Shown here: piece after piece, positions 19,850-52,754 of the stretch
How the letters are laid out: every line of letters begins with the position of its first letter
Position numbering within the stretch: position 1 is the first letter of the stretch
Source of the DNA: Trypanosoma brucei
Taxonomy: Eukaryota
Assembly: GCA_000002445.1 (NCBI GenBank)
Contig: CM000208.1
Span: 1,600,001 to 1,664,000 of the forward strand
DNA length: 64,000 nt
Direction: 5' to 3'
Program-made: the position numbers and the translations under genes
The notes under the pieces: generated by a model
Databases searched by the model: none
Told to the model about the DNA's origin: nothing
The model's input: only the letters and a program-made list of their open reading frames with translations

Positions 19850-22800
19850 TGGAAAGCGGAACTAGAGATCTCCTCAACTAATTAATTCAGGATACCAAGG
19901 GTCAGATCTCCCTCCAGCACTTAGGCAAGTAAACAAGGAGCGAAAGGCAATACTATCGTAAGTAACACAGGGCACCATGAGGTAAACAAACACGAAAAAA
20001 AGTAGTTGAAAAAATAAACACATATATGCCTTCTGAAACGGTATCCGAATCCTAGCATCCCGTGGTAATAGTTATTATAAGTGTTAGACGTAAAGTGTCA
20101 ACCACGAGGGTAAACGAAGGAAAAGAAACAATAAATAATCACGCTGATGTTTGAATATCATGTCATTCCTCACCACCGTTCCGAAGGTGACAAAAACATG
20201 TATCTGCTACCTCTAACTTGAGACAAAATTGAATATAATCGTAAAGGGTGTACCCGATACATACACGAATAACACTCAGTGTAAAAATTAAAAAATGAAT
20301 AAAACGAGAAGACCTTCGGTAATACCTAAGAAGACAGAACCTGTTTCAAACTCGCTGATTACATCCAACGTCCCTCTTATCCATCAATCCGGCTTGTAGT
20401 GATGACACATTCTAGTAATCAACTGTGAAAATGGGGTGAGATCATGAAAGCAGATGTTCATCCGCTGTTCATTCCGCGAGGATGTTAAACCTACACGGAA
20501 CCTTCCTTAGCTCTCCACACTGGGCACTATGAGGAAAACATGCCGTGCTACCTGTCACTGGAAACCTGTTGCTTCACCAGCAACGATAGACTAAAACGTG
20601 GCCCCAAACCCCCAAAAAGTTAGCGCCAGGACTGAAAGTTCGTACCATTTGCCCCGCAGAGCACATGTGTGCACGAGCGTATTGCCGGTGAGGAAAGAAA
20701 AATCCATAAACGTTTTCAGCAAAACATTGGAGGCCTCGGTTTTCCATGAAATACCATACATACAAGAAACAAGCGAAACGAAAAATAAAACAAAGCACCA
20801 TAGTTGTAGTCATGGATAATGCCCGTAGTTCCTTTTTTTTTTTGAGGAATAAATGAAAACATGTTCAGATTTTTTTGAAGAAAAGGGGGAGTTGCCGACC
20901 CTTAGAAAGCACCAATCAGCTTTTTCTCCTCAAAGGTTCGACATACCGCAAAGAATTGTTCATACGGTGCCCAACATCGGTTCGTATGCACCGCTATGAT
21001 CATTTTCGAATGCAACAACCACTAACGAGTCAACCCATTGCAACAGGGGAAAAGTATAAAAAAAACAAACTACACTATTGCTTCATTCAGAAATAAAAGT
21101 GATTGATGCGGGCACTAAATGTTAGAGGAAAGACTCGCTGAATTTTGTGAGCAGCGAGTCCTCTATTATATTACTACTCATCGATTTTATTATATTTTCC
21201 TTATATAATACAATTTATAAGGGGAGATGTGCCGCCGAATCATTGCATAAGTAAGGGAAGAAATCGAGAGAAAACGCAGTAGCTTCTGCATGTTATGCAG
21301 GACCCTAGACCATGGCTAAGCTAAACTCAAAGAATTAAAAAACAGTTAGAAAACACCGAAAGGCTTGATAACAAGTGAAAACCGCCACGATGCACCGTTT
21401 AGTGATATATCTAAAGTAACAGAGTTGAACAATAACTAGTGACAACGGAAACTGCATGGCCACCTTGAGACAAATATACCATAGCCCAATTTCACGGAAG
21501 AAAAAAGTCGATAGGAGCTAGTGGGCACGAGAGCTGTTGCCCTACGTGCTGGAGAGCAAAGCAATACTGAGCAATCACGTGTCCACAAGAAAATATTATA
21601 ATCAAGGGATAAAGCTCAGCAACCGTTCACCCTTTTGGTGCTTTTTGGGACACACAAAACCGAGGACAAAAGACGCAAAACGGTGAAGAGGTAAATATGT
21701 GCATGGCACATCATAAGCCATCAAAGATAGGCATCCAATACCCAGAGATGCCCCGCGGTTAAATCGGTTCCCAGCTTGTTTTTGTTTTACCGCGACCAGT
21801 TAGTACACCAAAACTTTTTTTCGTTAATTAAAAGAGTACCCCTCCAAACAAAACACTGAACCCATTAACACCAAATCAAAAAAGCCTTAGTGTTTCAAAA
21901 TAAAAAACGCAATATAGCATAAGGGTCAAGGTACAATAAATGGATTGTAAGTGTAAAGATTAAAAGGCAAGGGGGGAAACACGATCGTGGCGTGTAGCAC
22001 TTCCTTAGAAACACATATTGCACCGGTTGCCTCACAGAATGGAAGGAAAAAGATACCAGCACAATCGCACCGATACATACGTACGATGAACCAATTCGTA
22101 GAGCTTAAGTAATTAAAAAATATGAGCAGCTGGTGGCCAGGTTCGGGGAACTCAGCACAACGCATTACCAGGTTCAGCACATCGGGTAGACGGGGGAAGG
22201 GTTGTTTGTCTTCTTCATCAGCGCTGGAGCGGCCTGTCGCCCATACGTGTAACAAACCACAGTCAACAGACTAATGGGATATTGTGTCCACAAACTCTGC
22301 AAAATCGGCTGATATTTACACAGATTGGAAAGCGAAAATTAAAAAAAACCATGTAACCAAAGGAACCTCAACCATCTCTTTCCCCTTCAAAACATTAAAA
22401 TAATTTTCAGCGAGTATAACTAATCCCTTATTCATGAAGAATCGAGCGAAAGGGAAGAATAAATGTTGGAAACAGTGGTTGTGGTAAGCATATCTTCAAC
22501 TTTTCTATCACATAGAAAGGCATTTTAAAACCTTCCAACACGAAATTTTGACAAACATCCTCGCACGTACGGCCAACCCTCCGCAACAACACATGAACGA
22601 TGTTTACACACCTTACATGTATGGTTCCGGGAGTTCACCCTTCCCAGAGCCGCTGTTCGGTGAAAATCAAAAGAGGGCTATTATGTTATCCGTGACGATA
22701 TAAACAAACGCACAAAAGCGCAGTGAATCTCACCTATTTAAGAATAAGTTAAAGCTATGACAAAAATACAATAAGAAAGGGAAAGAGTTGGCTAGTGGAT

Positions 22801-25800
22801 TTTCTCCACGACTTTCCCCAATTCACTAAAAGCAAGAAAAAAGTGCATTACGGCCGGTCAGGGAAAGCATTCGGCTCAAACGTACCACAGGGTAGGGGGA
22901 AATAGAGCTAAAATTCCCTCCGTGCCGTAGGCTTGCGGCAAAATCGAGGGAAAGTGCGGATCGAAAAGAATATCGGCTACAAGCTAGCAAAAAAAAACGT
23001 ACCGACGTGCAGGGAGGAGACTGGGGATGCGGCATGTCTACTCGATCTTCACATACTTACAGGCATATGCACACCGTGGGATTCAACCTGAATAGAAAAA
23101 CAGCAAAGGAATGTCAGCCATTTAGACAGTGGGGAATTTTGGGTCCGCTGTCAAGGTCAGTATTAAGCTGCATACTGGTAGACTGGGATCGACTGATTAC
23201 TGCACGATTTACAAGCAGCGGTACACACACATCTAACCGCCAAAACATATTTGCGCATGGGCGGGAATACCGGTTGTACAATTCCCCCTCCAGATTAAGG
23301 ACCACTTTGCCAAGTAAGAACCGACGACCCAGCATAATGTTCCTACAATGAATTTTCAACAATGGTCGGACCAAATAAGTAAGAGTACGCTACACCACCT
23401 TTCAAAACGGTCCACTTTCCAACACACAGAGGAAGAAAAGAGGCATGTGTCTCGAGACGCCCACAGTAAGAGAGAAAGTGTGATACATATAATCCAGAAA
23501 AGTTAATACCACCAAAGATGACTACTAAGGGCAGATAGGTATCCAGATGTGTATCTCGATACCGTTAAGAGTGGCCAATCAACGAAGCAGCATAATCATG
23601 CGGCACATCGGAAGAGAAAAACAGCTAATATATAGGATTCACGGTACTTATCTATGAGAAACAAGCGAGTCAAAATCAATCTAAAGATAATTCGCGCGGC
23701 ACAACATAAACAATCGGTAACGGAAGGGAAATCGCGGTTGCACACACATTCAGAGATTCGTCCGCCCGATTCTCCTCGAGTCGAACAGGAAAAACTCGAG
23801 TCGTTAATCCGAACACTATTGATATACAAAGTGCGTATTTCAACAGTTTCACCGAAAGACAATCATTTTCATAACCCCCATGGGCGTCAACGGCTGGCAC
23901 ACCGATAACGAACCCTTGGCAAACTCGCGAAAAAGAGGTCGGCCGAATTATCCACCAGGCCGTATATCAAAAGGCATTCACAGCCGTGACGCCGACACGA
24001 AACAGGGCAACTGAAACTGGCATAAACTCACACATATATAGTCACTTTAATTACGCCAGTTAGTAAAAATGAATAAACAATGCAACAGTTAACAGTGAGC
24101 ACAAAAGAGTGTATACATAATAATGGCGTGTTGTGCAAGGGCAATGCAACTTAACTAGCGCTACTACACGTGCAGCCATCATAACTCCCTTTTTCGAGAC
24201 GTTTCAGAGCATTTCAACGAAAAACGGCACACGTACATGCACATGAAGATGCGTCTGTTTTAAACAGTAGTAACCTACAGCGTTAAATTCCCCTAGGGAA
24301 GCAAGACGTCATGGCACCACAAGCTGCGGCCGAACGGATGCGCAACACGACATTTATGAGAACTTAAAGTCAGGCGGAAGTAATCCCTGTAAACAAAAGA
24401 GAACACTCGTTGACAAACGCAACAGAAAGGGGAAATTACAAGAAAAAACCACTAACCCAGTTACTGAAAGCGCCCCTTATATGTTTTTTTCCTTTTTTTA
24501 ATGCAACTGCAGGTAGCTTCTCGCAACAGCAAAACGAATACCACATCTCCGCCCATATGCGCAGGTATACATCGACTCCGGTTCAAAACTCTTTGTCGTG
24601 CATGATGGCTCAATACCTTCAGCGGTTGCGTCAAATTGCTTCCACACCAACCAACGACATGTTGATAAACCCGGGTGTGACGCCAACAAACAATCAAGCC
24701 CCGGGTGGTAATGTACCCAGTGCCACCGCGTCTGCAAATAATGACGCCGCTTAAAAAACATGTTAATCCACAAACTTGCCACTGTAAAGGCAAAAGGCTC
24801 ACAATCGCCGCCAGCCTAGAGTCACAACACGACCCGCCAACTCCCCAAACCGTCCAAAAAAAAAAAGATTCGACACAGCAGGGGCCAGTACTACGTAATC
24901 GCGTCCTGCATGACCCTTTCGAGCAACCCCTCGCCCCCGGCTCCGAGATTTTCTGGACAGACGCCCTCAGGCCAGAAACAAGAGGTGCGCACCCCATACC
25001 AATACACCGACGCCCCGTGCCACACCGTGTCACATCATACACTTGCGAAATGCATACTCAACATCATCGCGGGGGGATCTCCAGCGAAAGCTGCCGCTAC
25101 GGGTGTTCCCTCGGTGAAGGGTCCCTCTGGCGTCCCCATCGCTCCAAGTGGTAAAAGCGGCCGAAAATAAATTGACTACAAAGGGGGCCCCGACGTGTAA
25201 CTCGCGCGCCGCCCGAACAAACGCATTTTCGGGCAGCAGTTTATGGGGAAACCTTGTGTAAATAGTACCCCCTTGCTTAGAATCATAACCGCCGACATGC
25301 GGAAACAACTGTGGCCCACGGCGGCTGAACCACTGTGGCGCCTTGCAATGTAGCGGCCTCGACGAACACTAACACGGAGAAGTAGGGAAAAGAATTATGC
25401 AAAAAGCCCCACCCCCACGCTCACTATACACAGAGAAAAGCGGAAGCCCAAAACGCATGCGCCCGCACGCACAGCTCTGAGAACTGCGAATGAAGCCGCG
25501 CGAACGGCCAAACCTTATTTGACTTTCCCTGCTTCCGGACATTATCCTCTCCGATGCTGGGAGCGGGCCCCTTTCCTGGTCCGGTGCTTGTGCGCTCTTC
25601 CTGTCGCAGGCACTACTTGGACCATTCACCGGGACGGCGGGTAGCGGGCAAGCGTTGGGTAAGAAAACTCCTTGACGCAGTGCGAATGGTCCGCCAGACA
25701 CTCTTTCCGGAGGAGACCATGAGCAGGCAACGCTAGCCACCAAGAGGACACTGCTGTGCTCGGGACCCTGTATTGCACAGCTTTTGGGTCAACGGCGTAG

Positions 25801-26766
25801 CGCTGGGACGCCGTTTTCCACTCGTCAGTCCCTGAGGGAAAAATACAACTGCATCGGGCCGTCGGCCAGGACAGATTCGGGTCAGGCACTTACAGTCCAT
25901 CACCCTAAGCTAAATGAGAAGCTCGTACACATGCCTGCGCTGTGTTGCGGAAAATGTTTTTTGTAAATCCGTTGATTGATCGTTTTCACGCAGACAGCAG
26001 TCGAGAAACGTTAGGAGCACATCGCAACAGATGTCGAGCGGGACCCTTTTGGCTCCGGCAGTAAGATCGCGTATTTTATCCCCCTGTGCACGACCATTCC
26101 TTATCTTTTTGACTGTGCTGCTGAGGTACGGCCGACTCAGGTGCAAACGACTATTTATTTATTTTTTTTCGCCGGCGCCGGATGGAGGGGTCACAATGCC
26201 GTCCACAAAACGAGAACACCCAACGGCGGGCACCGCCAGACTGACCAGACTGTTACTGCGCGCGCCAGATAACTTTTGAAATCTCTCCGATATCCACCAT
26301 GCCGAATTCAGTTGTACCGGGTTAAAGGACCCCTACCGCCTTTTTTTGCGGACAAAACTAGAGGGAGCAGCGGCAGTTGCTGCAACTCCGTTGCGTAGAC
26401 TGGAATGCACCTCTCACGTGAAGGAGGTTTCAGCCAAGGTGTGTGTTTTGGCGAGCACAGGGGGAAATTGCGGCAGTCTCTTCCTTAACAGAACCCTCCG
26501 TGGCGCCCCGCTCTCCAGTCCGTAGTGGTGGGGAAGACTTCTTGATCCCGGACGCAGGGGCATGTGAAAGAATTTCTCTTTACGTACATTGTTGTCATTA
26601 CATTTCCTTCACATGGAGAGACCATTTCCGGCACACACGTGTATCGAGTGACACCCTTCAAAGCAGCGTCGACTTACATGTTCTCAGATCACAAAACGCA
26701 GCTGCGACGTCTCGAGAGTGAAAGCGTCCAACAATAAATTAGAGGGCTTGAATGTAAGTACGGGTC

Positions 26767-26768
<2 letters not shown>

Positions 26769-26804
<36 letters not shown>
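26769..26804. repeat. (GT)18 microsatellite at the strand-skew switch point
   Basis: Direct read: 36 nt of uninterrupted 'gt'. Confidence 0.95.
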
Positions 26805-26806
<2 letters not shown>

Positions 26807-27106
26807 AAACCGCCCTAGAGCCCCCAGTTCTAGGGATAGTTTGTTATGGAATCGTAGCCGTCATCACGGTTGATAGCATGTTATTCTCGGTGCATAGGTG
26901 ACCGCACTTAGTATCGATGTGACTCAGTGAGCCGAGCGTGACTGCGTTGTGTTTTATCGTAAAACTAGTCCTCCTTTGGGCGTAGAAAAGTAAATTTGGC
27001 GTCAGCGTTGCAGTGGGCTTGGTACAGTATTACAATGCGCGTCTGAAAGCAGGGTGGTTTACACGAAAGTTGGGACTCACTCCCTACATTTTCTTTGGTT
27101 TCTGTC

Positions 27107-27126
27107 TTTTTTTTTGGGGGGGGGGG
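27107..27126 (+). repeat. T9G11 composite homopolymer tract
   Basis: Direct read: 'tttttttttggggggggggg'. Confidence 0.9.
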
Positions 27127-27504
27127 TGAACTGATCAACGTCTCGGGGATATTACACGATTCATAATGGGAACGTTTTCTTAGTCCCTGGTTGAAATTCA
27201 CAAATCCGACAACACAGCAAACTACTTACCACCGCCCCTCCTACAAAAAAAAGACGTTTCAACCAGTGCTGAGGAGAAAAAAGATTTCTGTTTGGCTATG
27301 GCGGGCCGTCACCTTGTTTGTACCATTGACCCACTGGCTGTCTACTTCAAAAACATACACTGCGAAATGTCACCTCAGGAAGGTAGCACCAGTTGTCTCT
27401 TGGCCAATCCATTTCTTGCCCACCCGCCTTCGGAGGAGCGTTGCAATGGAAACCGGAGATATACTGATTAGTCTTTAGGGTTTGACTGAGTTCCAAAGCC
27501 ATAG

Positions 27505-27523
27505 TTTAGAGTTAGGGTTAGGT
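27505..27523 (+). repeat. Short interstitial telomere-like hexamer cluster (TTAGAG-TTAGGG-TTAGGT), with another TTAGGG at 27475-27480
   Basis: Direct read of 'tttagagttagggttaggt'. The trypanosomatid telomere unit is TTAGGG. Confidence 0.5.
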
Positions 27524-30500
27524 GCGAGTTGGTGTACCAGTCCAAATTGCGAACATCATCTTATCTAGTGCAGCGCTTCATTACAGCTGCACCGCGTTTC
27601 CAGTAAACGTGCGTCGCTGCAACACATTGGGTGGCCAATGCCTCTCTACGGTATGGGCACGATGGCTCCCTCCTCTTGCATGTGATAGCGTGTGGGTCAT
27701 CGTTCCTTTGGTCCTATTCCTCAAATGCGGAGCAACCCCTTGGTCACTTTCTTTGAACTGAACTTCAGACTCATCGACTTGTCGAGTCATCCAATCATAA
27801 AAACGCCAGAGCCTCTCCGTGGAACTCCGCGAGCGGTCAGACTCCTCCTGAGTCAGCGTTGGACCCTTCTTGTTGGCCGTCCGGTAGTTTGCGAACAGCC
27901 CCTCTCCACTTGCAATCGGAATCTTTTTTTGGCGTCGCTTGACTGGAGCAAAGGTTCTGTAGGTAGTGCTGCGTTCAGCTTCGTCTCTTGCCCCCATCCC
28001 TCAAGGTTGATTTTTTGTTTTACTCCAGTGAGAAACCAGAACCTGTAGTGGAATGCGAGCGTCACAGTGTGAGACTAAAAAATACCCTTACGTTATACGG
28101 AGCTCTCTCGAACACTACGCCAAGATCTGTTCGAGGCACCATGGGTAGTGTTCGAGAGTCTGGTATTATACACTTTACACAAACAGGGCATATAATTATG
28201 CGGAGATTTCCCTAGTGTTCGATACTATTCAAGATGTGAGAATGCATTTCCTATGGTGACTAAAAGTGTGTTATATCGGCTTAGTTCCCCTGCACATAAT
28301 ATACCATGAGGCGTTATGTACACAATATGGGAAGTGTGGCTACTGTATATGTTATTTGTTAACTCTTCCTTCGAATGAAACTACAGTCACAGCTCTCCTT
28401 CTCACATCATATGTATCTGCTTTACCTCACATTATTACTCTATACCATCGTGTTCTAATGGGAAAAATGATGTGGAATGACGGATTGGGTGAAAAAAGAA
28501 AAGATCAGAAAGGCATGACTATCTCTCTCTATGGTGTGTGGTATACGCTGTTGATGCTTTGAAAGTTCTGCGTCATCACGTGATATCGTATATCCACATG
28601 CTGTGTGCATGTATTCGTGTGATGCATGCTTGGAACAATGGAGAGTGTGACCATGTCAGTTTGTGTTCACCACCGTGCTCTTCATCTGTAGGAGTAGGTA
28701 AAACTAACAACAGATCATCAATATTTCAACGAAGGGAAGACAGGGTCGGTTTTAATCTGCGGCCACCGAGTGTCGGAGCAACGGTGGAGCCCCAACGTAT
28801 CCGTAGTGTTCAACCCCCTCCGTTGCGGTCTCCGCGTCCCCGCTCCTCATTGTTCGGCCGCTTTTGAAGACGCCACGTTGAGACTGGAACCTGTGTCTTG
28901 CCGCTTTTGCTGGAAAGAGGAAGGAAGATCACTGTGGCCACTAACAGTGGAGGGTCGGGTGTCGTGAGATGTGTCTATCTTCCGTTGGGGTTTTCTTCTT
29001 GGGAAAGCGGTTTACCTTAGTGGGCGGCGGTAACCTGTTCTATTTGGAAGGATGTCGTGCAGGGGGTGAGTGAGTTTTCTTGACCAAGTTTACGAATTTG
29101 TTGTGCACCCCTGTTTTATCCCACTGCTTGAAGTGTTTCGGAATAGATGATAGGGAGGATGGTATGGCAAGAAACCTGCCGGGACCTTTACCGTTTCACC
29201 GCTGACTACATGTTCCCACAATTTTCTACCATATCCTTCGGGCGGCATTGCAGTGAGAGTGCCATGTGGGACAGGGGACAGATTGGAACTTGATCTTCCG
29301 GAGGTCTTCGGAGTTATAGAGTGATTGCTTCTCTTCTCCTTTCCTTTGGCGTGACTCTCATACGGAGGCTCTTGGTGAGCAGGATACAATTCGCCTGCTG
29401 ACTTTTTGGTTTATTTTTTTCCATATTTCAGTGTTGCGGGGTCACTTTCGGCACCGTTGGGAATCGAGAAGTGACGTATAAAGGTGTTCGCTTCTGCAGC
29501 AAAAAGTGGTTCCGTTTGGTATTCGTTTGTGGAGACATTTTCCCTCCTTCCCATTTCGGACAACTTTTTGTCCCGGAAGAAGGGCTTTTGGTATTGTCCC
29601 GTCCGATGATCTTTGCCCCGATCGTTCCATCATGAATAATAGCTACAACTGTGTGTGTCTGTACGGCTGTGGATATTTCCGCAGTCCCCAATCGCTTCGG
29701 TCGCTTTTACTCTTTTATAGCACGGTTTAGAGTTGGTAAGCCGGCACCGTTCCATGGAAATAGCACTCATAGACATGATATCGGCGCCCCCTCAGAGCTT
29801 ACGCGGGCATCGAAGAGTATGACTTGATTGTCGCTGTGCGATGCGGATTGGAGGGTCATGTTTCTAACGAGGCAGCACCTCGAGAGGGTCACGCTGCTGC
29901 CTGAACTAATGGCACGCGCATGGCCACATTTTACACGCTCCCATATGCCTTCAATGTTTCACATATTTTCCGCATACCGAAGGACGACGAAATCACTCCC
30001 TCTGCGTGAAGGGACATCTTTATCCCGCTCCAAAGGGTTGGAAGTTGGAGCCGTTAGTGCTTACCTCTGTTCCTGCAGAGTTGGATCGCGGAACTGTTCA
30101 GTTATCGCTATTTTTCCGTGGGGGAATTTAACGGGGGTAAGGGTGATTTTGAGGGATCCTGCAAGGTGGGTTCTTGCGTGGACAAATTCGCGCGAATCAA
30201 CACTCGAGACACCCATCTCCGGTGACAGGTTTTAGAAGAAGTTTAAGGGTACAATAACAGAGCGTTCATGCATAGCTATGCCTATTTGCTTCATATCCCT
30301 GAGGAAGTGATGCGGCAACACATCCTCGTGGGGGAAGGGACCCAAGGAGTACGAAGGGTTTCGAGTGCCTTTTATTGTTATCGAGGCATATGTCCCACTC
30401 CACTACCAAAACATCCCCGCACAACGACGGGGGCCCTTCGGGTAGTAAGCCGATCTTGCTAACCTTCTCTTTTTTCAATACATACGCGCCCACTTCTCTT

Positions 30501-31596
30501 CTCTTCGTGATGGTGTACGTGGGGGCCACCGGAATGGCGCCTGTTATGGCCCTGGAGGTTGCAAAATAAGGAGGGAACACTTTGTATAAAGGGATGGGCA
30601 ACCGGACTCGTTGTAGCAGAAAGTCGGAGGGGTCACACTCAGTTTTCGGCCCGCTGCAGGAACAACGCTTGAGGGGCGAGTCGCTAGGAAGCGTAGCGGT
30701 GAGAGCTTTCCCGTTTCTGGAGGGGTTTTGGAGAGCTGACACCGAGAATGCCGGTAGGTTCGCCTCGGCCGGGACATGACAACTGACACTATTGAATTGA
30801 GTACTTGGAGGGGTGACGGTGTGAAGGTGAGGTATCAACCGATGGAGGTCGCGCGTCCCAGCGTCCCAGGTGGCCGTCAACCTGGAACTGACAGGCCCTG
30901 TGCCTGGGCTTTTGCCGAGCTGCTCGTCTGACAGAAAGGGAAGCTGCGTCAATACTGAGGCCCTTGTCGCTGTGTTTGATGTTTTGTCGCAGATGCTGCT
31001 TTTTGTTTTATTTTTCCCCCATGGGGACTCCAAATTGAGTTAGAGCGGCGCCTGCTACAAAGAGATTTGGTCGTTTTTCGTGATAAAGTTAGGGCTCTGC
31101 TCGGTGCATTTTTTTAAAAAAAATTCTAGGAGGCAAGGGTCCTGGGCGCGGGGGCGGGGACACCACTACGTGGGCTGCAGCATGTGGACTCTGCCGGCCC
31201 CTTTTCTTTTCACCGAAACGCTAGCTGACCTATGCTCGCCGCGCACGTCCAAGGTGCCATGGAAGTACCCCCTCAGTTGTTTGCCCGGAAAGTGATGAGG
31301 GAGCAGCCGGCCATTACTAATCCGTGGGCTGCCGGTGGGACATCAGGAAGGTGATATTGCTGCCGGTTTTGTAAAGAGCAAGGTGAGACCGGCGCATCCC
31401 GACATCTCTTTGAGAGTGCCACAGCCCATCGCTAGAGAAGGCAGCGGTTTGCAGTACGCTGTTGGGGTGCGCGCCTGTCTGAGGACTTCCCTAATGTAAA
31501 CATGTTGTGGCTGCCTCTTTGGGCATGAGCGTCTTAGGTGCGATTGTTTTTTCCTACGTTTCGCGGTCGTCACAGTGGTAGGTGGTAGACTGCATG

Positions 31597-31624
31597 TTTT
31601 TTTTTTTTTTTGGGGGGGGGGGGG
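31597..31624 (+). repeat. T15G13 composite homopolymer tract
   Basis: Direct read: 'tttttttttttttttggggggggggggg'. Confidence 0.9.
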
Positions 31625-32098
31625 TGATTATCTATGCCTCTCCTCGTTTTAGGTGCGAGCATCAGCAGCGCCGGCGGACGTGTTCTTGACTCCTAGTGGG
31701 CGCGTAAAAGACGGTTTGTTTCGAGTTGTTCGGTCCACGCGGCCTGGAGCTACGTTGGCGGAAGTGGGTGGGTTCCTCCTTGTCGTATGCTCGGACAGTC
31801 CTAGCGATAAGACCGCGGGAAGGGACTTCTGTCGCGTGTGGGTGATCTGGGTTTATCGCTGTTGCTCAATGGAGCTTTTTTTAAAGGCCTCCCAAGAGGG
31901 TCCTTTTACTCTGTACTGTTCAACGTTGGCGCCCACTCGCTTAGTATTCACAGTCTTCGTGAGAAGAGGTTGGTTGCGGATACTGTAGAATGGCATCCGG
32001 CTGAAGTGCTGTGGTCTTTCTGTTGCGATGTTAAAGATACTGGCCCTCGAATCAATGTTTACCGGTGGAAGCTGTACACCTGTGTTGTGTCTGACAAT

Positions 32099-32134
32099 CT
32101 CTCTCTCTCTCTCTCTCTTTTTTTTGGGGGGGGG
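32099..32134 (+). repeat. (CT)10-T8-G9 composite tract
   Basis: Direct read: 'ctctctctctctctctctct' + 'tttttttt' + 'ggggggggg'. Confidence 0.9.
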
Positions 32135-32553
32135 AACGTGGATGTAAGTTCGCAGTCGCTTTGTTTAAGAGTTTAGTAATATCTTCGCGTGTGTCCACGA
32201 GGTGGGCGACAACTAGATTGTTCTGAGCCGCTACTGCGTATGTGCTCCGTCACCGATTCCTGTTGTTGGATGTTCAGATAATGGTGCGGGGAAACTTTCC
32301 ATGAATCACCTGGGATGCCTTGTGTAGAAGTGTCCTTTGTCTTTGTGGTTTGGTGGCACTGCCTCTCATTTCTTCAACCATCTTTTCATTTTTTAAATGG
32401 ACTATTTTCTCTTCATTTTAATGGATATCATCACTCTTGGTATGTATGTGGAGCCATTTGCATCGTCATCGTTACTTTCCCCATGCATGAAGTAGGTATT
32501 TACATCAGTTCTTGTTCCTTTGCCGCTTCATTTTGATAACAAAGCCACACGCT

Positions 32554-33638: not shown

Positions 33639-34553
33639 ATGGATCACCCTCCCGCAGGACCGTTTGGAGGAGGGGAGTGCCGCTGCACTGGTATACGTTT
33701 TTGCCAGCACTGCATAGATTCAGATCGTGCACAGTCTATAGTCAGGCGGCACGTTTCACTCGCAAACGCATCTGATGTCGTTCTACGGCAATATACTGAC
33801 CAGCGAATGTCCTCATGCTCCTTCGCTTGCGTGGGACCTAGTCTGCTTTCTATGTGCTGCGCATGTAGGACCGTTTTTGAAACGGCTGGTGGAGTACTAA
33901 AGTGCTGCGGAGATCACAAAGGTTTTATCGCGCGAACTGATATCGAACTATCCGGATTAACGATCCAACCAGGGTTTGTTTCTCCTAATGAAGAAGAGTA
34001 CCTGGTGGCATTCTTTGATAATCCAGCCCCCTTTGCTGCCTGGAAAGTTTCACAAAGCGGAAGGAGGAAACAGGAGTACGGGCCTAAGGCCAATTTTAAG
34101 AAACGGAAGTTGAAGGTGGGTGATTTCCGAGCCTTGCCGCATCAGATGAAAACGACTCTGGACAGGGTCCGGTCCTTTGTTGCAGAACAAACGATGAGGG
34201 AATATTGTATTGTGGAAGTATCAGTTTTGGAATATACGGCTGAGTGTAGTTGTTTGGATCCTCACATCGACGACACGTGGCTATGGGGTGACCGCATTGG
34301 TGGTCTTAACTTGTTGGATGACGTTACTTTAACATTTGTGAGCGCTGATGAGGTCGCAGTGACCGTGTTTGTCCCACGTGGTGCTTTTTTTCTGCTAACC
34401 GGTGTAAGCCGCTACGAATGGATGCATGGCATACGGCGTGAGGATGTTAAAAACCGTCGTGTGTCTGTCACATTCCGGGAGTTTGCCGACAATTTGGTCG
34501 TTGATCAAGAAATACTTAAAACTATCGTAATGTCCGCTACGACATTCATTTAG
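33639..34553 (+). CDS. AlkB-like 2-oxoglutarate/Fe(II) dioxygenase (ALKBH-type)
   Basis: C-terminal half has the double-stranded beta-helix signature 'DPHIDD...WGDRIGGLNLLDD...VSRYEWMHGI...RRVSVTFRE' (HxD...H...RxS). The N-terminus is Cys-rich ('CRCTGIRFCQHC'). ATG verified. Confidence 0.65.
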   Translation: MDHPPAGPFGGGECRCTGIRFCQHCIDSDRAQSIVRRHVSLANASDVVLRQYTDQRMSSCSFACVGPSLLSMCCACRTVFETAGGVLKCCGDHKGFIARTDIELSGLTIQPGFVSPNEEEYLVAFFDNPAPFAAWKVSQSGRRKQEYGPKANFKKRKLKVGDFRALPHQMKTTLDRVRSFVAEQTMREYCIVEVSVLEYTAECSCLDPHIDDTWLWGDRIGGLNLLDDVTLTFVSADEVAVTVFVPRGAFFLLTGVSRYEWMHGIRREDVKNRRVSVTFREFADNLVVDQEILKTIVMSATTFI

Positions 34554-34804: not shown

Positions 34805-35980
34805 ATGCTGCCTATACTAAAGGCCGGGGAAGACGAGGGGGGTCCCCGGATCCCCCCTCCTCTATGGTGTGAGGCGAAGCGTGAGGCGTTAATCGATGGC
34901 AAAGGAAAAGTTAATCTTGAGGTAATGCTTGTTCATTTTCTTCGGCAAGGACGTTTGAGCAAGCACGATGCACTCAACATAATTCAAAATGCATCAAGTG
35001 TACTTCGTACGGAACCCAACGTCCTGAGGATTGCTGATCCTTCGGTTGTAGTCGTCGGCGACGTTCGGGGACAGTTCTACGATTTAGCAAAAATTATATT
35101 TATAGGTAATATGTTCAGTAGGGCAAAAACGTATTTGTTTCTAGGTAATTATATTGACTCATGTTTTTTTAGCACCGAGTGTATACTCCTTTTGCTTGCG
35201 GCGAAACTAACCCACCCGAGTTGTGTATTTTTGCTTCGTGGAAACCATGAATGCCGTTTTATGTCGAATATTTTCGATTTTCGGGGAGAGTGTCTGAAGA
35301 AATATAATGACGATGTTTACGAAGCCATTATGACAGCGTTTGATTGTCTTCCACTGGCAGCTGTTGTAAACAATCAGTATTTTTGTGTACATGGAGGTCT
35401 TTCACCTGACGTTACGAGTGTTGACAATATTCGCTTAATTTATCGATTTCGGGAACCCCCGTCGAAAGGGGCTATGTGTGATTTATTATGGTCTGATCCG
35501 TTTTGGGATGTAGAGAATCCGTCGTCAGTTTGCGAAGGTTCTAGAGATGATTATTACACCCCTGGAAATGGCCCATCGTACGGTACGGCGCCATGCTTTC
35601 TTGACAACGAGCAGAGAGGTTGCAGTTATTTGTTTAACTATCATAGTGTAAAGCACTTTTTGTTGACGAATGGTCTTCTTTGCGTCGTACGTAGCCATGA
35701 GGTTCAAGATGATGGTTATAAGTTGTATAGGTTCAACAGTGTTTCCAATTTTCCGTGCATGATGTCCGTTTTTTCTGCCCCTAATTACTGTGATAACTTG
35801 CACAACAAGGGTGCAGTCCTCATTCTTGAGGGGAAACAAATAGGTATAAAGCAGTTTTGTTGCTCGCCTCATCCTTATGTTCTCCCAAAGCATCTTAACG
35901 CATTTGAATGGTCATTCTCTTACCTGTTGGATAGTGTTCGCGACATATTTGCTTCCATCATTTCGTGTGAGGGAGCATGA
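34805..35980 (+). CDS. PPP-family Ser/Thr phosphatase-like protein with degenerate catalytic motifs (candidate pseudophosphatase)
   Basis: PPP fold markers are present in order, but several are altered. GDxHG becomes 'GDVRGQ', GDxVDRG becomes 'GNYIDSC', GNHE is intact ('RGNHECR'), HGG is intact ('CVHGGLSP'), 'RG' is intact, 'RSHEV' is present, and SAPNY is intact ('FSAPNYCD'). Confidence 0.75.
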   Translation: MLPILKAGEDEGGPRIPPPLWCEAKREALIDGKGKVNLEVMLVHFLRQGRLSKHDALNIIQNASSVLRTEPNVLRIADPSVVVVGDVRGQFYDLAKIIFIGNMFSRAKTYLFLGNYIDSCFFSTECILLLLAAKLTHPSCVFLLRGNHECRFMSNIFDFRGECLKKYNDDVYEAIMTAFDCLPLAAVVNNQYFCVHGGLSPDVTSVDNIRLIYRFREPPSKGAMCDLLWSDPFWDVENPSSVCEGSRDDYYTPGNGPSYGTAPCFLDNEQRGCSYLFNYHSVKHFLLTNGLLCVVRSHEVQDDGYKLYRFNSVSNFPCMMSVFSAPNYCDNLHNKGAVLILEGKQIGIKQFCCSPHPYVLPKHLNAFEWSFSYLLDSVRDIFASIISCEGA

Positions 35981-38900
35981 TGAGACTCAAGTTTCCTGTT
36001 TGTAGAACTTACATTGTCGACCCCCTTTCCGTTCTATGCCTACGAGTGCCAGCAGCGAGAGGGTATATATACGCACATATAAGCTTCTTTCTTTTATCTC
36101 GCATTTTTGATTTTAACACCGCTCCGTTGTATTTAGGTGTGGGTTAGTATTTAGTTTAAAATTCTTTCAAGTCCTCTCAACTCAGCCAGGGTCGTAAAGA
36201 GCAAGACACAGAGGGGAAAGCTGCCCTATAATCGCCTGTGGCGCATTTTCATGAGTCCTCATTAGGTGTTCCTGCGCCAGCGGCCAAAACATTGCATCAT
36301 TCCGTCGCCGTATGGAACCAACAATTGTGAAAAAAAAAAAGGATTTAATCGGGGGATCCCCTTGGAGCAGATCACTGTTATGAGGTTTATTATGAGTGTT
36401 GCGAACAGGGAAACAGCTGGTGATGTTTATAGACGTTCTGCTTTGGTATTGAGTATATGATTGCTGTACCAACTGCCATGAGGCAGTCATTAATACTTTT
36501 TTTGACTTTTAATTCGTTCTTTGATCAAAAGTGTACGTGTATGGAATCATCTTGAATATTTGGAGAATTAATCATACGTCCGGAAGATTTGAATATAGTA
36601 ACTTCTTCTACCAGAGACCGAAATACCGGGATGTGTGATTTTATGCGGTTGCCGCTGGGAGCACGCTTCTATGCGTGCCTTTTACGAGGGCGCCTACGTT
36701 GTTGCAAGTGTGATCTGTGCGGCATTTACTCGTACAGCGGAGAGCGGGGATATCGCTTCTGGGGTATGCGGGAACGGGACATTGAATGCCTTCTTTTCAT
36801 CGTTAACACTCAACTTATTGAACATCTGTAGATGTCAAAGGGTGCCGATGCCGACTGATCATCGAGATAGCGACGGAGTTACCGTTGTTCCCTGGAGTGA
36901 TGTCCGATTTTACCAAATATGAGAGGAGGAGGTCTGTGTTTTCTCTTTTGACCGGACCGGTTATGAAATGAGTGATTTACCACTGCATTCAGCATGTGCA
37001 ATGACAGCAGTAAGGTTTGTAACTCCGCTTAAATCACCACGAGTATGTGAGTGCTCGTGTGATATGTTGTACTGCGCAAGAAAGAAACACGTGGACCCAA
37101 TTCCTGCCGTATCGACCCTCGGCAAAAACGTTTCGAGCACCTCTTCGTTAAATATACGCTTGTGGATGGGCTTGAACGAGAGCGTTCGGCATCAAGATAT
37201 ATGTTTCCTGTGTAGGTAAAGACAATAGATTCGAAGTTGACGTTTCCAGAAGTGTGCAACACGCTGTGGGAAGATTCCACTGGAAGCTGCATAATTTTGT
37301 TATGTACAGATGCCGTAGGTTCATTCGGTTGCTTCTAGAACCTCGTTGGAGGATTAGATAGGCATACAGGGAGTACGCCGTTGCTTGCTCGAGGTTATAG
37401 TGCACCTCCTGTTGACACGAACGGACATACGCACGTGTGTGAACACGAAGTGCCCTTCAAACCTTAAGGATTCGATGTTTCAGTCTACTTTATCATGCTG
37501 AGGGGTTAAACTGACCTATGCGTTTTTGCACTTGGGTGTGGTTTTAGAATTCTTTGAGAGGCGGGATATTAGCATGCAGTGCCTCTGTGCTCTATATCTT
37601 CCATGCACATCCGGTCTGGTGAATGACCCTATCTCTTTACTACGCGGTGTCATGCGGCTTATACTGACAGTTGTTAACTCTGGTGCATCCTGCTGGCGTG
37701 TTAATGGCCCTCGTTGAGCGGTGAGATGTGGAGCTCCCCTCCTTTTCAAGTGGTTCTGTAAATGGTGGCTAATCGTAACTCATTCTACAGATTTGCAGCT
37801 ATGTTTTTTCCGCAGGCGCGCTGTGCAGAGATGTGTGATGCTTACAGGTGGATACCACATACTGCTCCGTTGCTGTGCGGGTTATGCTTGGGATGCAGAC
37901 ATGGAAGGGTTGGGGAATACTGACTTCCACGATGTGGGTGGCGTTAACGCTGACGAAGAAAAATATTGTTTTTGTAGATTGATTGTCAAACGAGCTGCGC
38001 GGGTGGCGTGGTGGGGGAAGGGCGTTGTTTTATTCTCTGTGTCGCTCAAGCGCTAGATCATGCACTTGAAGGAGTGTCCACCAGCGTCATCGGTGGGGTG
38101 GCTGCGCCCTTCGTTGACCATCTACATGTTTGGGTCGAAATCACTGGCGTTGTCGTCTGCTGTATTCGTGTTGGATTGCTTTACGATGGGGCGGAAGCAA
38201 CGACTCCTCTCAGCAGTGGTAAATGTTCCTCTGACGTTGCGTCTGATGCTGTATTTCTCAGCTTCATACAAGGGGGAGGAACCGAGATTACCACCATCTA
38301 CATGTGTTCTTGGGTCTTCACAGGGCAACAATTTTCTTCTTTTACCCGGCGCCTTTGCGGAGAGTGGCTGCACCACGTTCTTCCCAGGTCGAGAGGGCTT
38401 AATGAGTGAATTACAGGATGAATTGTGGCTACAGTTGCCGTCGAGGCTACTGATTTTAGCTAGATTAGATTTAGCGAACTTTTTATTTGCAGTTGTAGGT
38501 CGTTTGCCGAATAGTGGGATCAACCTCTTTCAGCAAAGGCCCCCTTCATCACTGGCAGTTTTACCCAAACGTTGCATGGGCATGACTCTTGTTGCCCTTA
38601 CAACGTTGTAACTCCTCGCGGAAATGTCTCGATTGTGTCTCTTTCGTATGGACACTTCATTTGGAGGAGGTTTTATCCCTTTTTTCTGATAAATTGATTT
38701 GTTGCAGCAACCTCGTCGTCCCCCAACATGAGTTGCACGGATCAATATTAAAGTGGAAAGAAGGGGTGCTACGACGCAGTGCTTTTGGTCGATGTCGGTA
38801 AGGTATCGCTTTGCTTCGCACTACAGGTTTTTTGTTTGGGGGTATTGCGCGGACGGTGTGTTTGTGTGTGTGTGAAAAGACTATGGGGGTAGCGAAGAAG

Positions 38901-39440
38901 GCCCGGTAAAGGGTCAGATCGTGATGGAGCCGTGACAAACAGTAGGAGTGGTGGTAACATCGAGAGGTGTCGCAACTCGGGCTTCGGTGCGCACAATATA
39001 TGGGAAACGTTGCCCTCAAGGACCCCGCTGCCAGCTACTCGGTATTGGGGCGAAGGGACAAACTTGAAGTCATGGAGTTTGCTGAATTCCCTTCCAGTGA
39101 GAGCCTGCGGGTTGATCAGTTTAGACCAGTTTTAGGATACCCAAAATCTGGAACTTCAATATCCCACTGTTTTGTCTCCGCACAGCCTTAAGGTTGTGAA
39201 ACGTCACGAACAGGGAGTGCCGTAGGACCACGTGGGTACCCGCTTTAATAACCGCAGGGGCTAGCCGTGTTTTACTATTCCCCTCCCCGATAAAAGAGGC
39301 AGTAGCACTGTTCCTTCTTGTTTTCATATTTGTTTTCGTTTTGTAAAAAAAAATTCCTTGGATGCTCTTCTTTTTCCTCCTAACCTTTTATCAATTATTC
39401 CAATGGAAAAAAAAAGCAGCAACAGGACTCACCGGCCACT

Positions 39441-50840: not shown

Positions 50841-52754
50841 ATGGGATTCTTCTCGTTTAAGAGCAACGAGAAACTGAAAAGTGGCGCTGATGGAAGGAAT
50901 GCCACCGGAAGTGGAAGTATCAAACCGTCTGGTCCCACCGATGGCGACGGCGGATTCTCAGGTTCGTCCGGCCGTCCTGTTGCACTAACTGCAGAGGAAC
51001 ATCACGAGGGCGTCGACCCACTAGGATATATGTCACACTTGCCCGTCACTGATATCATAGAGCTCTACACCAGTTTCCGCAACTCACTGCAGGAGTGCCC
51101 CGATCTTGTGCAAAAGAGGTATTTCGTGAGCACCGTGAAGACTCTTTCCTCCCAAATGAAACTGAGAGATTTCAGTGAAAAGAGTATCAGCACACATGAC
51201 GGCACAAAACTGCCGATAGTTAAGCGTGTCTTGAGGGAAGTTCCTTCCGTGCGCTCGCGGCTAGCACTTGCGTTGCAAAATTTCTGTCACGTCACCGATT
51301 GGGAGCTGGAAAATGAGGAAATCGAGTGCGGAACTGGTCTTCTTGCCACTCTCCGTGGCGAGTCATCGCGCTTGAGGAGCGGCCATGAAGTAGATGAGGG
51401 CGAGAGTGCGGCCAGATTGATCCCGCGTATGGATTCCTTTGATCCAACCCATATATACAACCTGGTTTCGACAACTGATAAGTTACCTTCGATGCAGGAG
51501 ATGGCCGAACTGATCCGGAGGACGAATGAGTTGCTCCTTCAGGAGGTTAACGTTGTGCTGGTGTCTGCACCATGCGTTGTGGTAGGTGACATACATGGAC
51601 AGAAAAAGGATCTCATAGACAATGTTCTTGCGGCGGGTGGGCCAATAGCCCCGTGCGGCACCGATGCGGTACCCGAGGGTAAACCTGATGATGGAGCAGC
51701 GAAACCCGCAGGGCGGAATTACTTATTTCTAGGGGATATCGTCGACCGAGGTCCAGAAAGCTTGGGTTGCCTCGCGCTTTTGTTTGCTGCTAAGCTAATG
51801 GCACCCAAAAGCGTTCATCTTCTCCGGGGGAATCACGAGAGCTCTGAGACAAACCGCAATTATGGTTTCCTGAGAGAGTGCTGGGAGCGGTACCCGATTA
51901 ATAGTCCGGGGGGCGGTGGTCCTACAGCCTGTACTGGTGGTAACACCGCAATGGACTGCGTGTGGGAGCTTCAAAGTCATCCCCTGTGGGTACTGGCGAA
52001 TGAGACGTTCCGCAGTCTTCCTCTTTGTGCAGTTGTGACAGGGGAGGCTGCCTCTCCTTCTGCTCTCCCCAATTGCGGCAAACACAGGGAAGGTGACCGT
52101 CAGGGCGGCCTCACTTTGTGTGCGATGCATGGTGGCCTTTCGCCTTTCATCGCCGAGAGTCTCGACGGTATTTTGGCTGTTAATCGGTTCCGTGACATTG
52201 TCGATGGTCCACTTGCGGACCTAACGTGGGCCGATCCCGTATCAGCGCTGGCTCTGTTTTCTCCTGGAAATGTAGCTGCTGCGGCAACAACAGCTGGAAA
52301 TGTCGGAAGTGAATTGAGCGATACCAACAACGGTGCCCCGCCTCAACAGCAAGAAGGAAGGTTTCAACATCATCGCATGGCCGTCCAGCGCAGTGAACCC
52401 GTTCCCACAACCAGCGCGACTGTTGGCCACGTGCTAAGCTCCAGAGGCCGCGGTCACAATTTCGGTGAGGACGTAACGCTGCGGTTCCTTCGGAAGAATA
52501 AAATGGATTTTATTGTGCGTGCCCATCAGTGTGTGATGGAGGGTTATGAGTGGCAGCACCAGCGGCGGCTTTTGACGCTATTTTCCGCCCCCAATTACTG
52601 CGGCTGCGGCAACAAGGGTGCTATTCTCATCGTACACGAACGCGGAGACCCCGAGCTGGTGCAGTTTGAAGCAGCTGGTATTCAGATTTGCGGTGCCATT
52701 GCGGCAGTGAGTCCGAAACCGTCACCGGTCCCACCAAAGGAATTTTGTAGTTAA
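50841..52754 (+). CDS. PPP-family Ser/Thr protein phosphatase with intact catalytic motifs, a long N-terminal extension and insertions
   Basis: 'VVGDIHGQ', 'LFLGDIVDRGPES', 'LLRGNHES', 'CAMHGGLSP', 'RGRGHNFGED', 'VRAHQCVMEGY' and 'FSAPNYCG' are all present in canonical order. The ORF-track start 50766 is TTG. The first ATG is at 50841 ('MGFFSFKSNEK'). Confidence 0.85.
   Translation: MGFFSFKSNEKLKSGADGRNATGSGSIKPSGPTDGDGGFSGSSGRPVALTAEEHHEGVDPLGYMSHLPVTDIIELYTSFRNSLQECPDLVQKRYFVSTVKTLSSQMKLRDFSEKSISTHDGTKLPIVKRVLREVPSVRSRLALALQNFCHVTDWELENEEIECGTGLLATLRGESSRLRSGHEVDEGESAARLIPRMDSFDPTHIYNLVSTTDKLPSMQEMAELIRRTNELLLQEVNVVLVSAPCVVVGDIHGQKKDLIDNVLAAGGPIAPCGTDAVPEGKPDDGAAKPAGRNYLFLGDIVDRGPESLGCLALLFAAKLMAPKSVHLLRGNHESSETNRNYGFLRECWERYPINSPGGGGPTACTGGNTAMDCVWELQSHPLWVLANETFRSLPLCAVVTGEAASPSALPNCGKHREGDRQGGLTLCAMHGGLSPFIAESLDGILAVNRFRDIVDGPLADLTWADPVSALALFSPGNVAAAATTAGNVGSELSDTNNGAPPQQQEGRFQHHRMAVQRSEPVPTTSATVGHVLSSRGRGHNFGEDVTLRFLRKNKMDFIVRAHQCVMEGYEWQHQRRLLTLFSAPNYCGCGNKGAILIVHERGDPELVQFEAAGIQICGAIAAVSPKPSPVPPKEFCS

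Follow-up and report, generated by a model that had tools for sequence, protein, structure and literature searches.

The closest described systems to the gene considered here are the calcineurin A (CNA; PP2B) catalytic subunits of the PPP family of phosphatases, both the canonical proteins (human PPP3CA and trypanosomatid CaNA1) and the second, divergent subunit of Trypanosoma cruzi, TcCaNA2. The T. brucei gene, TbCaNA2, lies on the plus strand at positions 34805-35980 of a 64,000-nucleotide stretch of the T. brucei genome (contig CM000208.1, positions 1,600,001 to 1,664,000 of the forward strand). This whole stretch is called the window, and all coordinates below refer to it. The gene ID given for TbCaNA2 is Tb927.10.6460 (PMC8470620). 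A pseudophosphatase status was already suggested by Brenchley et al. in 2007 (PMC2175518), and the 2010 review by Szoor repeated the two-group picture and described other kinetoplastid PPPs as proposed substrate traps or scaffolds (PMC2994645). Orrego et al. in 2014 discussed such a status for TcCaNA2 and argued against it (PMC3907409).

An initial annotation of the window, made from the sequence without database searches, described the open reading frame (ORF) as a degenerate PPP paralogue and a likely pseudophosphatase. The CaNA2 gene and the pseudophosphatase idea had both been published, and the finding is a rediscovery. Several points developed here were not found in PMC2175518, PMC2994645, PMC8470620 or the available part of PMC3907409: the Bodo-type A2 proteins with a canonical active site, D118N as the shared first change, the independent later losses that include R122S in T. 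brucei, the statistical clustering of released constraint on catalytic residues and the finding that, within Trypanosoma, A2 evolves more slowly than A1. Taken together, the evidence makes TbCaNA2 most likely, with a probability of about 0.6 in our judgement, a Ca2+-responsive docking subunit bound to calcineurin B (CnB; CaNB in trypanosomatids). Such a subunit would be non-catalytic or only vestigially catalytic, and efficient hydrolysis of phosphoesters would not be the function under selection.

TcCaNA2 and TbCaNA2 are orthologues of 392 and 391 amino acids (aa), respectively, with 68% identity and the same synteny. They share H92R and D118N (human numbering), the same insertion and the same truncation after the CnB-binding helix, but T. 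cruzi keeps Arg122 (GNYTDRS) where T. brucei has Ser (GNYIDSC). Data on activity, CaNB association and knockdown come from T. cruzi CaNA2 only (PMC3907409). With canonical calcineurin A, TbCaNA2 shares the catalytic fold (template-modelling (TM) score 0.85-0.94), the CnB-binding helix, W352 and S353, and the SAPNY motif. It differs from the canonical proteins in H92R, D118N and R122S, in an insertion of ~20 aa after LWSDP, in the absence of calmodulin-binding and autoinhibitory domains, and in N330, which is not conserved. CaNA1 itself varies in length, being short in Trypanosoma too and long in Leishmania. The Bodo saltans CUE73349-type protein and its environmental relatives (P0019, P0125, P0016, P0014 and P0021) resemble TbCaNA2 in that their insertion is homologous and their C-terminal tail short. 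Unlike TbCaNA2, they have fully canonical catalytic residues (DHDDRG-NH-H-R-H), which would represent the state before decay. The described pseudophosphatases that associate with active relatives or trap substrates, among them STYX, the inactive myotubularins and the kPPP pseudophosphatases of kinetoplastids mentioned by Brenchley (2007) and Szoor (2010), resemble TbCaNA2 in their conserved fold, mutated catalytic residues, purifying selection and proposed scaffold or trap roles. STYX and the myotubularins have the Cys-based PTP fold, whereas TbCaNA2 is a degenerate binuclear-metal PPP with a retained CnB interface and a predicted inactivity. To our knowledge, pseudophosphatases of the PPP family are uncommon.

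Identity and domain layout of TbCaNA2

The product of the ORF is 100% identical over 391 aa to T. brucei Q38AW0_TRYB2 / EAN78060.1 (cluster member P0121), and the records of T. b. gambiense and T. equiperdum hold a sequence identical to the TbCaNA2 protein. Pfam Metallophos (PF00149) matches aa 81-301 with E=6.7e-29 and 102 bits, against a cutoff of 21.5. The PPP motifs follow in the canonical order, GDxxG - GxxxDxx - GNHE - HGG - RG - H - SAPNY, and GDVRG, GNYIDSC, GNHE, HGG and SAPNY, the forms read off by the initial annotation, were all found at their computed positions. That annotation was correct in assigning the PPP fold, but by treating the protein as a generic PPP paralogue it missed a calcineurin A which has a CnB-binding helix and is without calmodulin-binding and autoinhibitory domains.

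TbCaNA2 is a calcineurin A and not a generic PPP. In a phmmer search of all PDB sequences the best matches are calcineurin A chains (E~1e-104), with PP1 and PP5 at ~1e-55, and the alignment places aa 23-387 of TbCaNA2 on residues 30-370 of human CNA. The AlphaFold2 (AF2) model, built from a 60-sequence alignment, has a mean predicted local distance difference test (pLDDT) score of 87.9 and a predicted TM (pTM) score of 0.87; when this model was compared with the PDB by Foldseek, ranks 1-36 were all calcineurin A, with target-normalised TM scores of up to 0.94. In the CNA tree the protein is placed in the A2 clade. Judged by its sequence and modelled fold, the ORF at 34805-35980 is the gene for TbCaNA2, a second and trypanosomatid-specific calcineurin A (PP2B) catalytic subunit. 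Its features are as follows.

34805-35980, plus strand: complete coding sequence of TbCaNA2, an ATG-initiated ORF of 391 aa plus stop
34871-35860, plus strand: PP2B-type metallophosphoesterase catalytic domain (aa ~23-352), from Pfam, phmmer, AF2 and Foldseek
35057-35071, plus strand: motif 1, GDVRG (aa 85-89); Asp86 (human D90) is kept and His92 is replaced by Arg88 (codon CGG, 35066-35068)
35144-35164, plus strand: motif 2, GNYIDSC (aa 114-120), with Asn115 (AAT), Ser119 (TCA) and Cys120; Asp118 of TbCaNA2, which is human D121, is kept
35240-35251, plus strand: motif 3, GNHE (aa 146-149); Asn147 and His148 (human N150 and H151) are kept
35387-35398, plus strand: VHGG (aa 195-198); His196 (human H199, an M2 ligand) is kept
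35528-35587, plus strand: A2-lineage insertion of ~20 aa (aa 242-261) that follows LWSDP and precedes the RG motif, predicted to be flexible (pLDDT 50-59)
35615-35698, plus strand: segment with Arg271 (human R254; 35615-35617) and His298 (human H281, an M2 ligand, in SHE; 35696-35698), both kept
35774-35788, plus strand: SAPNY (aa 324-328)
35837-35860, plus strand: strand matching calcineurin beta14, the edge at which PxIxIT motifs dock; it reads G-I-K where the human protein has N330-I331-R332
35900-35968, plus strand: calcineurin-B-binding helix (aa 366-388), aligned to human 349-370 and predicted as a helix by AF2

In the helix, the LxVP-pocket residues are W369, S370 and Y373 (human W352, S353 and F356, the last being Tyr here), and the hydrophobic positions of the CnB-binding helix are conserved. 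The first residue of the PxIxIT-edge triplet (human N330) differs among A2 orthologues. The chain stops 3 aa past the helix, and 23 aa follow the equivalent of W352 (W369), compared with 110-270 aa in canonical CNAs. Because the protein ends directly after the CnB-binding helix, both the calmodulin-binding and the autoinhibitory domain are missing from it. On the opposite strand, a 122-aa antisense ORF at 35525-35893 (minus) lies wholly inside the coding sequence and is most likely a chance ORF.

Catalytic residues in TbCaNA2 and its orthologues

In calcineurin and PP1 the metal M1 is liganded by D90, H92 and the bridging D118, and M2 by D118, N150, H199 and H281. Phosphate is bound by R122 and R254, and the general acid is H151 acting with D121. 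In lambda phosphatase, PP1 and calcineurin, kcat falls by orders of magnitude when the equivalent metal ligands are mutated. A literature search on metal-ligand mutagenesis in calcineurin (D118N, H92) gave nothing useful.

Compared with human calcineurin A, TbCaNA2 has R88 in place of H92, N115 in place of D118, S119 in place of R122 and C120 in place of G123. Seven of the ten catalytic residues are kept (D90, D121, N150, H151, H199, R254 and H281 in human numbering), and the full set of ten is lost through H92R, D118N and R122S. On the calcineurin/PP1 ligand assignments just given, the M1 site is dismantled, two of its three protein ligands being gone (His92 to Arg and the bridging Asp118 to Asn), with M2 largely intact. 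Of the two arginines that bind phosphate, Arg122 has become Ser and Arg254 stays.

Intact, syntenic CaNA2 orthologues occur in at least eight Trypanosoma species and in many further trypanosomatids. Identity of TbCaNA2 to the Trypanosoma proteins annotated 'PP2B catalytic subunit A2' spans 66-80%; by species or group it is 80% for T. congolense, 75% for T. vivax, 73% for T. grayi (a shorter model of 350 aa with 89% query coverage), 67-69% for T. melophagium, T. cruzi, T. conorhini, T. rangeli and T. theileri, and 47-53% for Strigomonas, Phytomonas, Novymonas, Leptomonas, Porcisia and Leishmania. The gene order phosphomannomutase (PMM), a ~300-aa 2OG-Fe(II)-oxygenase-like gene and CaNA2 is kept in five other Trypanosoma genomes.

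The ten catalytic positions were tabulated across the retrieved homologues, which include many from Logan, JGI and ENA. Asn at position 118 is nearly universal, being present in 25 of the 26 degenerate trypanosomatid A2 proteins used for the tree and in 32 of the 33 members of the degenerate clade in the larger comparison described below. Position 92 is more varied: it is Arg in all nine Trypanosoma sequences, Gln in the Leishmaniinae and Phytomonas, still His in Strigomonas and several unnamed sequences, and N, C or E in single unnamed sequences. Lineages outside Trypanosoma have D121G, and G, N or S for R122; the Leishmaniinae additionally have N150S and H151N (GSNE), and T. congolense has H151N (GNNE). 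R122S is found in T. brucei and T. vivax. As the serine codons differ, TCA at Ser119 of T. brucei (35159-35161) and AGT in T. vivax, and T. congolense, the sister of T. brucei, retains Arg, these two losses would most simply be independent. Two extreme members of the degenerate clade are proteins from unnamed Logan assemblies, in which, to judge from their residues, the pocket is nearly erased in an intact ORF. P0017 reads S-N-G-G-N-G-S-N-Y-R-H at eleven positions (the ten catalytic ones and G123), D90 and H199 also being lost, and P0022 has H281N and is without the Tyr of SAPNY.

Conservation across kinetoplastid orthologues had been proposed as a check on the first description. The substitutions are conserved or extended in all trypanosomatid orthologues and are not an artefact of strain or sequencing. 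Within Trypanosoma the Arg88 codon varies synonymously (CGG, CGT and CGC), as does that of Asn115 (AAT and AAC); the Arg and Asn states are held by selection and are not sequencing errors.

CaNA2 as a whole is clearly a functional gene under strong purifying selection. The ratio of non-synonymous to synonymous substitution (dN/dS, by the Nei-Gojobori method) is 0.074 between T. cruzi and T. rangeli, 0.140 between T. theileri and T. melophagium and 0.114 between T. cruzi and T. theileri, synonymous sites being saturated in comparisons with T. brucei; this is the level of the adjoining PMM, for which the same three species pairs give 0.055-0.118. Taken with a dN/dS of 0.07-0.14, the synonymous variation at these Arg and Asn codons shows that it is the protein with the non-canonical active site that is under selection.

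The CaNA1 proteins of T. cruzi, T. theileri and T. melophagium (P0152, P0162 and P0198) were compared with the CaNA2 proteins of the same species (P0005, P0008 and P0004). T. theileri and T. melophagium share 91% identity in CaNA2 and 66% in CaNA1, and T. cruzi and T. theileri 74% and 66%, respectively. By these identities the canonical CaNA1 evolves faster within Trypanosoma than the degenerate CaNA2, a comparison to which gene-model errors or paralogy within A1 may contribute. No CaNA1 of T. brucei, T. congolense or T. vivax was among the 120 best matches to T. cruzi CaNA1; TbCaNA1 (Tb927.9.1540) and T. brucei CaNB are known from the literature (PMC2175518, PMC8470620).

Where constraint has been relaxed was examined by comparing 33 degenerate with 27 canonical sequences, a position being counted as released if it is at least 95% conserved in the canonical set and kept in <50% of the degenerate set. 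Seventeen positions are released, and six of them are catalytic (H92, D118, D121, R122, N150 and H151); the others include V120, L156, F160, C256, D313, Y341 and F346 in human numbering. D90, H199, R254, H281, W352 and S353 remain at least 95% conserved in both groups alike. From these alignments, the constraint released in the degenerate clade falls on the catalytic residues themselves.

The origin of the clade was addressed with a neighbour-joining (NJ) tree on Kimura distances (49 sequences, 379 trimmed columns and 200 bootstrap replicates). The 26 degenerate sequences form one clade with 99.5% bootstrap support, nested in a 36-sequence 'A2-type' clade (100% support) that also includes fully canonical proteins, among them P0019, whose cluster at 90% identity holds B. 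saltans CUE73349. All A2-type proteins, the Bodo-like canonical ones included, carry after LWSDP an insertion of ~20 aa with the form WDV.NP...Y.P..G..Y/F..P.F. The canonical CNAs of other eukaryotes and the kinetoplastid CaNA1 paralogues are without it. In CaNA1 the motifs are canonical in T. cruzi, T. theileri, T. melophagium, Porcisia and Leishmania alike. The most parsimonious reading of this distribution is that an A2 paralogue with an intact active site was already present in the ancestor that bodonids and trypanosomatids share. Because the B. saltans A2-type protein has a canonical active site, decay would have begun in the trypanosomatid stem, most parsimoniously with D118N as the shared first hit and with the later catalytic losses following along separate lineages.

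Docking subunit or weak enzyme

In the reading that we favour, TbCaNA2 together with CaNB would dock partners by means of the conserved CnA/CnB composite (LxVP-type) pocket and the residual phosphate-binding pocket, and it could serve as a scaffold, trap substrates or compete with canonical CaNA1 for CaNB and for substrates. The continued conservation of D90, H199, H281 and R254 suggests that the pocket may still bind metal and/or phosphate. Catalytic residues have been lost across the whole clade, and the loss goes on, in part independently from lineage to lineage. Residues essential for catalysis are missing from TbCaNA2 and their loss is conserved across orthologues, which is a hallmark of a pseudophosphatase, and TbCaNA2 is likely to be 'catalytically dead'. 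The proposal of a dead scaffold or substrate trap in the initial annotation therefore stands only in part, as the substitutions are genuine and under selection but the T. cruzi orthologue is reported to hydrolyse p-nitrophenyl phosphate (pNPP) (PMC3907409), and measurable activity is what that annotation itself had named as refuting it. This result, from the only published assay, speaks against strict inactivity in T. cruzi.

That activity is the first of several points that weigh against a non-catalytic subunit. Recombinant TcCaNA2 is reported to hydrolyse pNPP and to be stimulated by Mn2+ and Ni2+ and inhibited by EGTA (PMC3907409). T. brucei CaNA2 still has the general acid and all three non-bridging M2 ligands (N150, H199 and H281), and an Asn at position 118 can still ligate a metal. 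The stercorarian trypanosomes have kept D121, R122, N150 and H151 unchanged over a long divergence, and this stability of the pocket could mean that residual catalysis is still selected there. The binding of CnB by T. brucei CaNA2 is itself inferred, from its sequence and by analogy with the T. cruzi orthologue, which associates with CaNB in the parasite and is cytosolic (PMC3907409). Finally, the literature found on T. brucei Tb927.10.6460 consists of one 2021 in-silico paper, and no biochemical or genetic data on the T. brucei protein were found.

In the main rival reading TbCaNA2 would be a genuine but weak calcineurin, constitutively open for want of an autoinhibitory domain, using Mn2+-type metals at its remodelled site and dephosphorylating substrates in vivo as proposed for TcCaNA2. 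The Mn2+- and Ni2+-stimulated activity of the recombinant protein agrees with such an enzyme, as does the observation that morpholino knockdown in T. cruzi lowers host-cell invasion (PMC3907409), and so do the seven catalytic residues retained in T. brucei and the stable R122, N150 and H151 of stercorarian Trypanosoma. However, the enzyme would have to work with two of its three M1 ligands gone, the bridging Asp included, and in T. brucei without Arg122 as well. T. congolense, the sister species, and all Leishmaniinae have lost the general acid and still keep the gene. The assay was performed at 80 mM pNPP with 1 ug of protein, and the available part of the paper mentions neither a catalytically inactive mutant as control nor a comparison with a canonical enzyme (PMC3907409). 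Since T. cruzi keeps Arg122, the activity of TcCaNA2 is in any case not simply transferable to T. brucei. We regard a weak enzyme as conceivable but, on balance, doubtful.

A pocket remodelled for a new purpose, with Arg for an M1 ligand and Asn for the bridging Asp, would make TbCaNA2 a mononuclear hydrolase of another phosphoester, for example, or a sensor of phosphate or nucleotides. The strict conservation of Arg88 in Trypanosoma despite turnover of synonymous codons, the almost invariant Asn115 across the clade, and the conservation of D90, H199, R254 and H281 while the catalysis-specific residues drift are all what such a pocket would lead one to expect. A single shared new mechanism is, however, hard to reconcile with the variability of position 92 within the clade (R, Q, H, N, C and E), and D121, R122, N150 and H151 drift lineage by lineage, as expected under relaxed constraint and not under redesign. 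Experimental hints of it there are none, and we consider it improbable. Hardly less of a long shot is a more specific version of the docking subunit, in which CaNA2-CaNB would be a Ca2+-gated calcineurin 'reader' and not an eraser, derived from an ancient A2-type calcineurin whose M1 metal site was lost in the trypanosomatid ancestor, binding LxVP-type or phosphorylated partners without dephosphorylating them and serving, as the more constrained subunit, as the functionally dominant A subunit in Trypanosoma. As an alternative, the conserved Arg88 might take the place of the lost M1 cation, so that the PPP would be mononuclear and its chemistry changed. An artefact of sequencing or strain, or a decaying pseudogene, has nothing in its favour beyond the unusual residues and can be dismissed with near certainty. 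It is rejected by the identical protein in several Trypanozoon genomes, by the intact syntenic orthologues and by the dN/dS of 0.07-0.14, and it sits badly with the expression and localisation reported for the T. cruzi protein (PMC3907409) and with the TrypTag localisation cited for T. brucei CaNA2 (PMC8470620).

The surrounding window and wider meaning

The window holds a second PPP gene, described earlier as the canonical counterpart of the degenerate copy.

50841-52754, plus strand: second PPP gene, 637 aa from the ATG at 50841, with GDIHG at aa 249, GDIVDRG at 298, GNHE at 330, HGG at 430, RAHQ at 560 and SAPNY at 582

Its canonical residues, its N-terminal extension of ~250 aa and its large inserts, which lie between the motifs, are as first described. 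The paralogy proposed between the two genes did not hold up as a close relationship, TbCaNA2 being a PP2B and the downstream gene a divergent PPP outside PP2B. The latter stands as far from PP2A as from PP1 (E~1e-41) and has the look of a kinetoplastid-specific PPP.

Directly upstream of CaNA2, at 33639-34553 (plus), is a 304-aa ORF with dN/dS of 0.11-0.16. Its orthologues in T. theileri and T. melophagium have a weak match to Pfam 2OG-FeII_Oxy_2 (AlkB-like). Synteny of the ORF extends to T. cruzi, T. rangeli, T. theileri and T. melophagium, and a shorter call of 201 aa takes this place in T. vivax. On the other side, a gene of ~1008-1033 aa that has no Pfam match directly follows CaNA2 in T. 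cruzi, T. rangeli, T. theileri and T. melophagium. A tblastn search of the whole window with the 1010-aa T. cruzi protein gave no match at E<=1e-3. The gene is missing from the T. vivax locus too, and it may have been lost in the salivarian trypanosomes or have diverged extremely. The 3.46 kb that follow CaNA2 in T. brucei (35981-39440) contain a single ORF of at least 180 aa, at 38060-38611 (183 aa).

From 3461 to 31033 the long ORFs are on the minus strand, and from position 32512 they are on the plus strand. The interval at ~31033-32512 is a divergent strand-switch region and likely a zone where polycistrons start, just upstream of the PMM-oxygenase-CaNA2 block. The ~10 kb at 19850-30265 hold one ORF of at least 180 aa only (24461-25042, minus). 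Rfam and tRNA scans of the whole window gave no matches.

Calcineurin is both a drug target and a hub of Ca2+ signalling. If the metal centre of a conserved, CnB-binding CaNA2 is dismantled, then part of trypanosomatid 'calcineurin' biology would be non-catalytic, including phenotypes ascribed to cyclosporin A (CsA) or FK506 or to deletion of CaNB. If this is true, the reading of inhibitor and knockout results would change.

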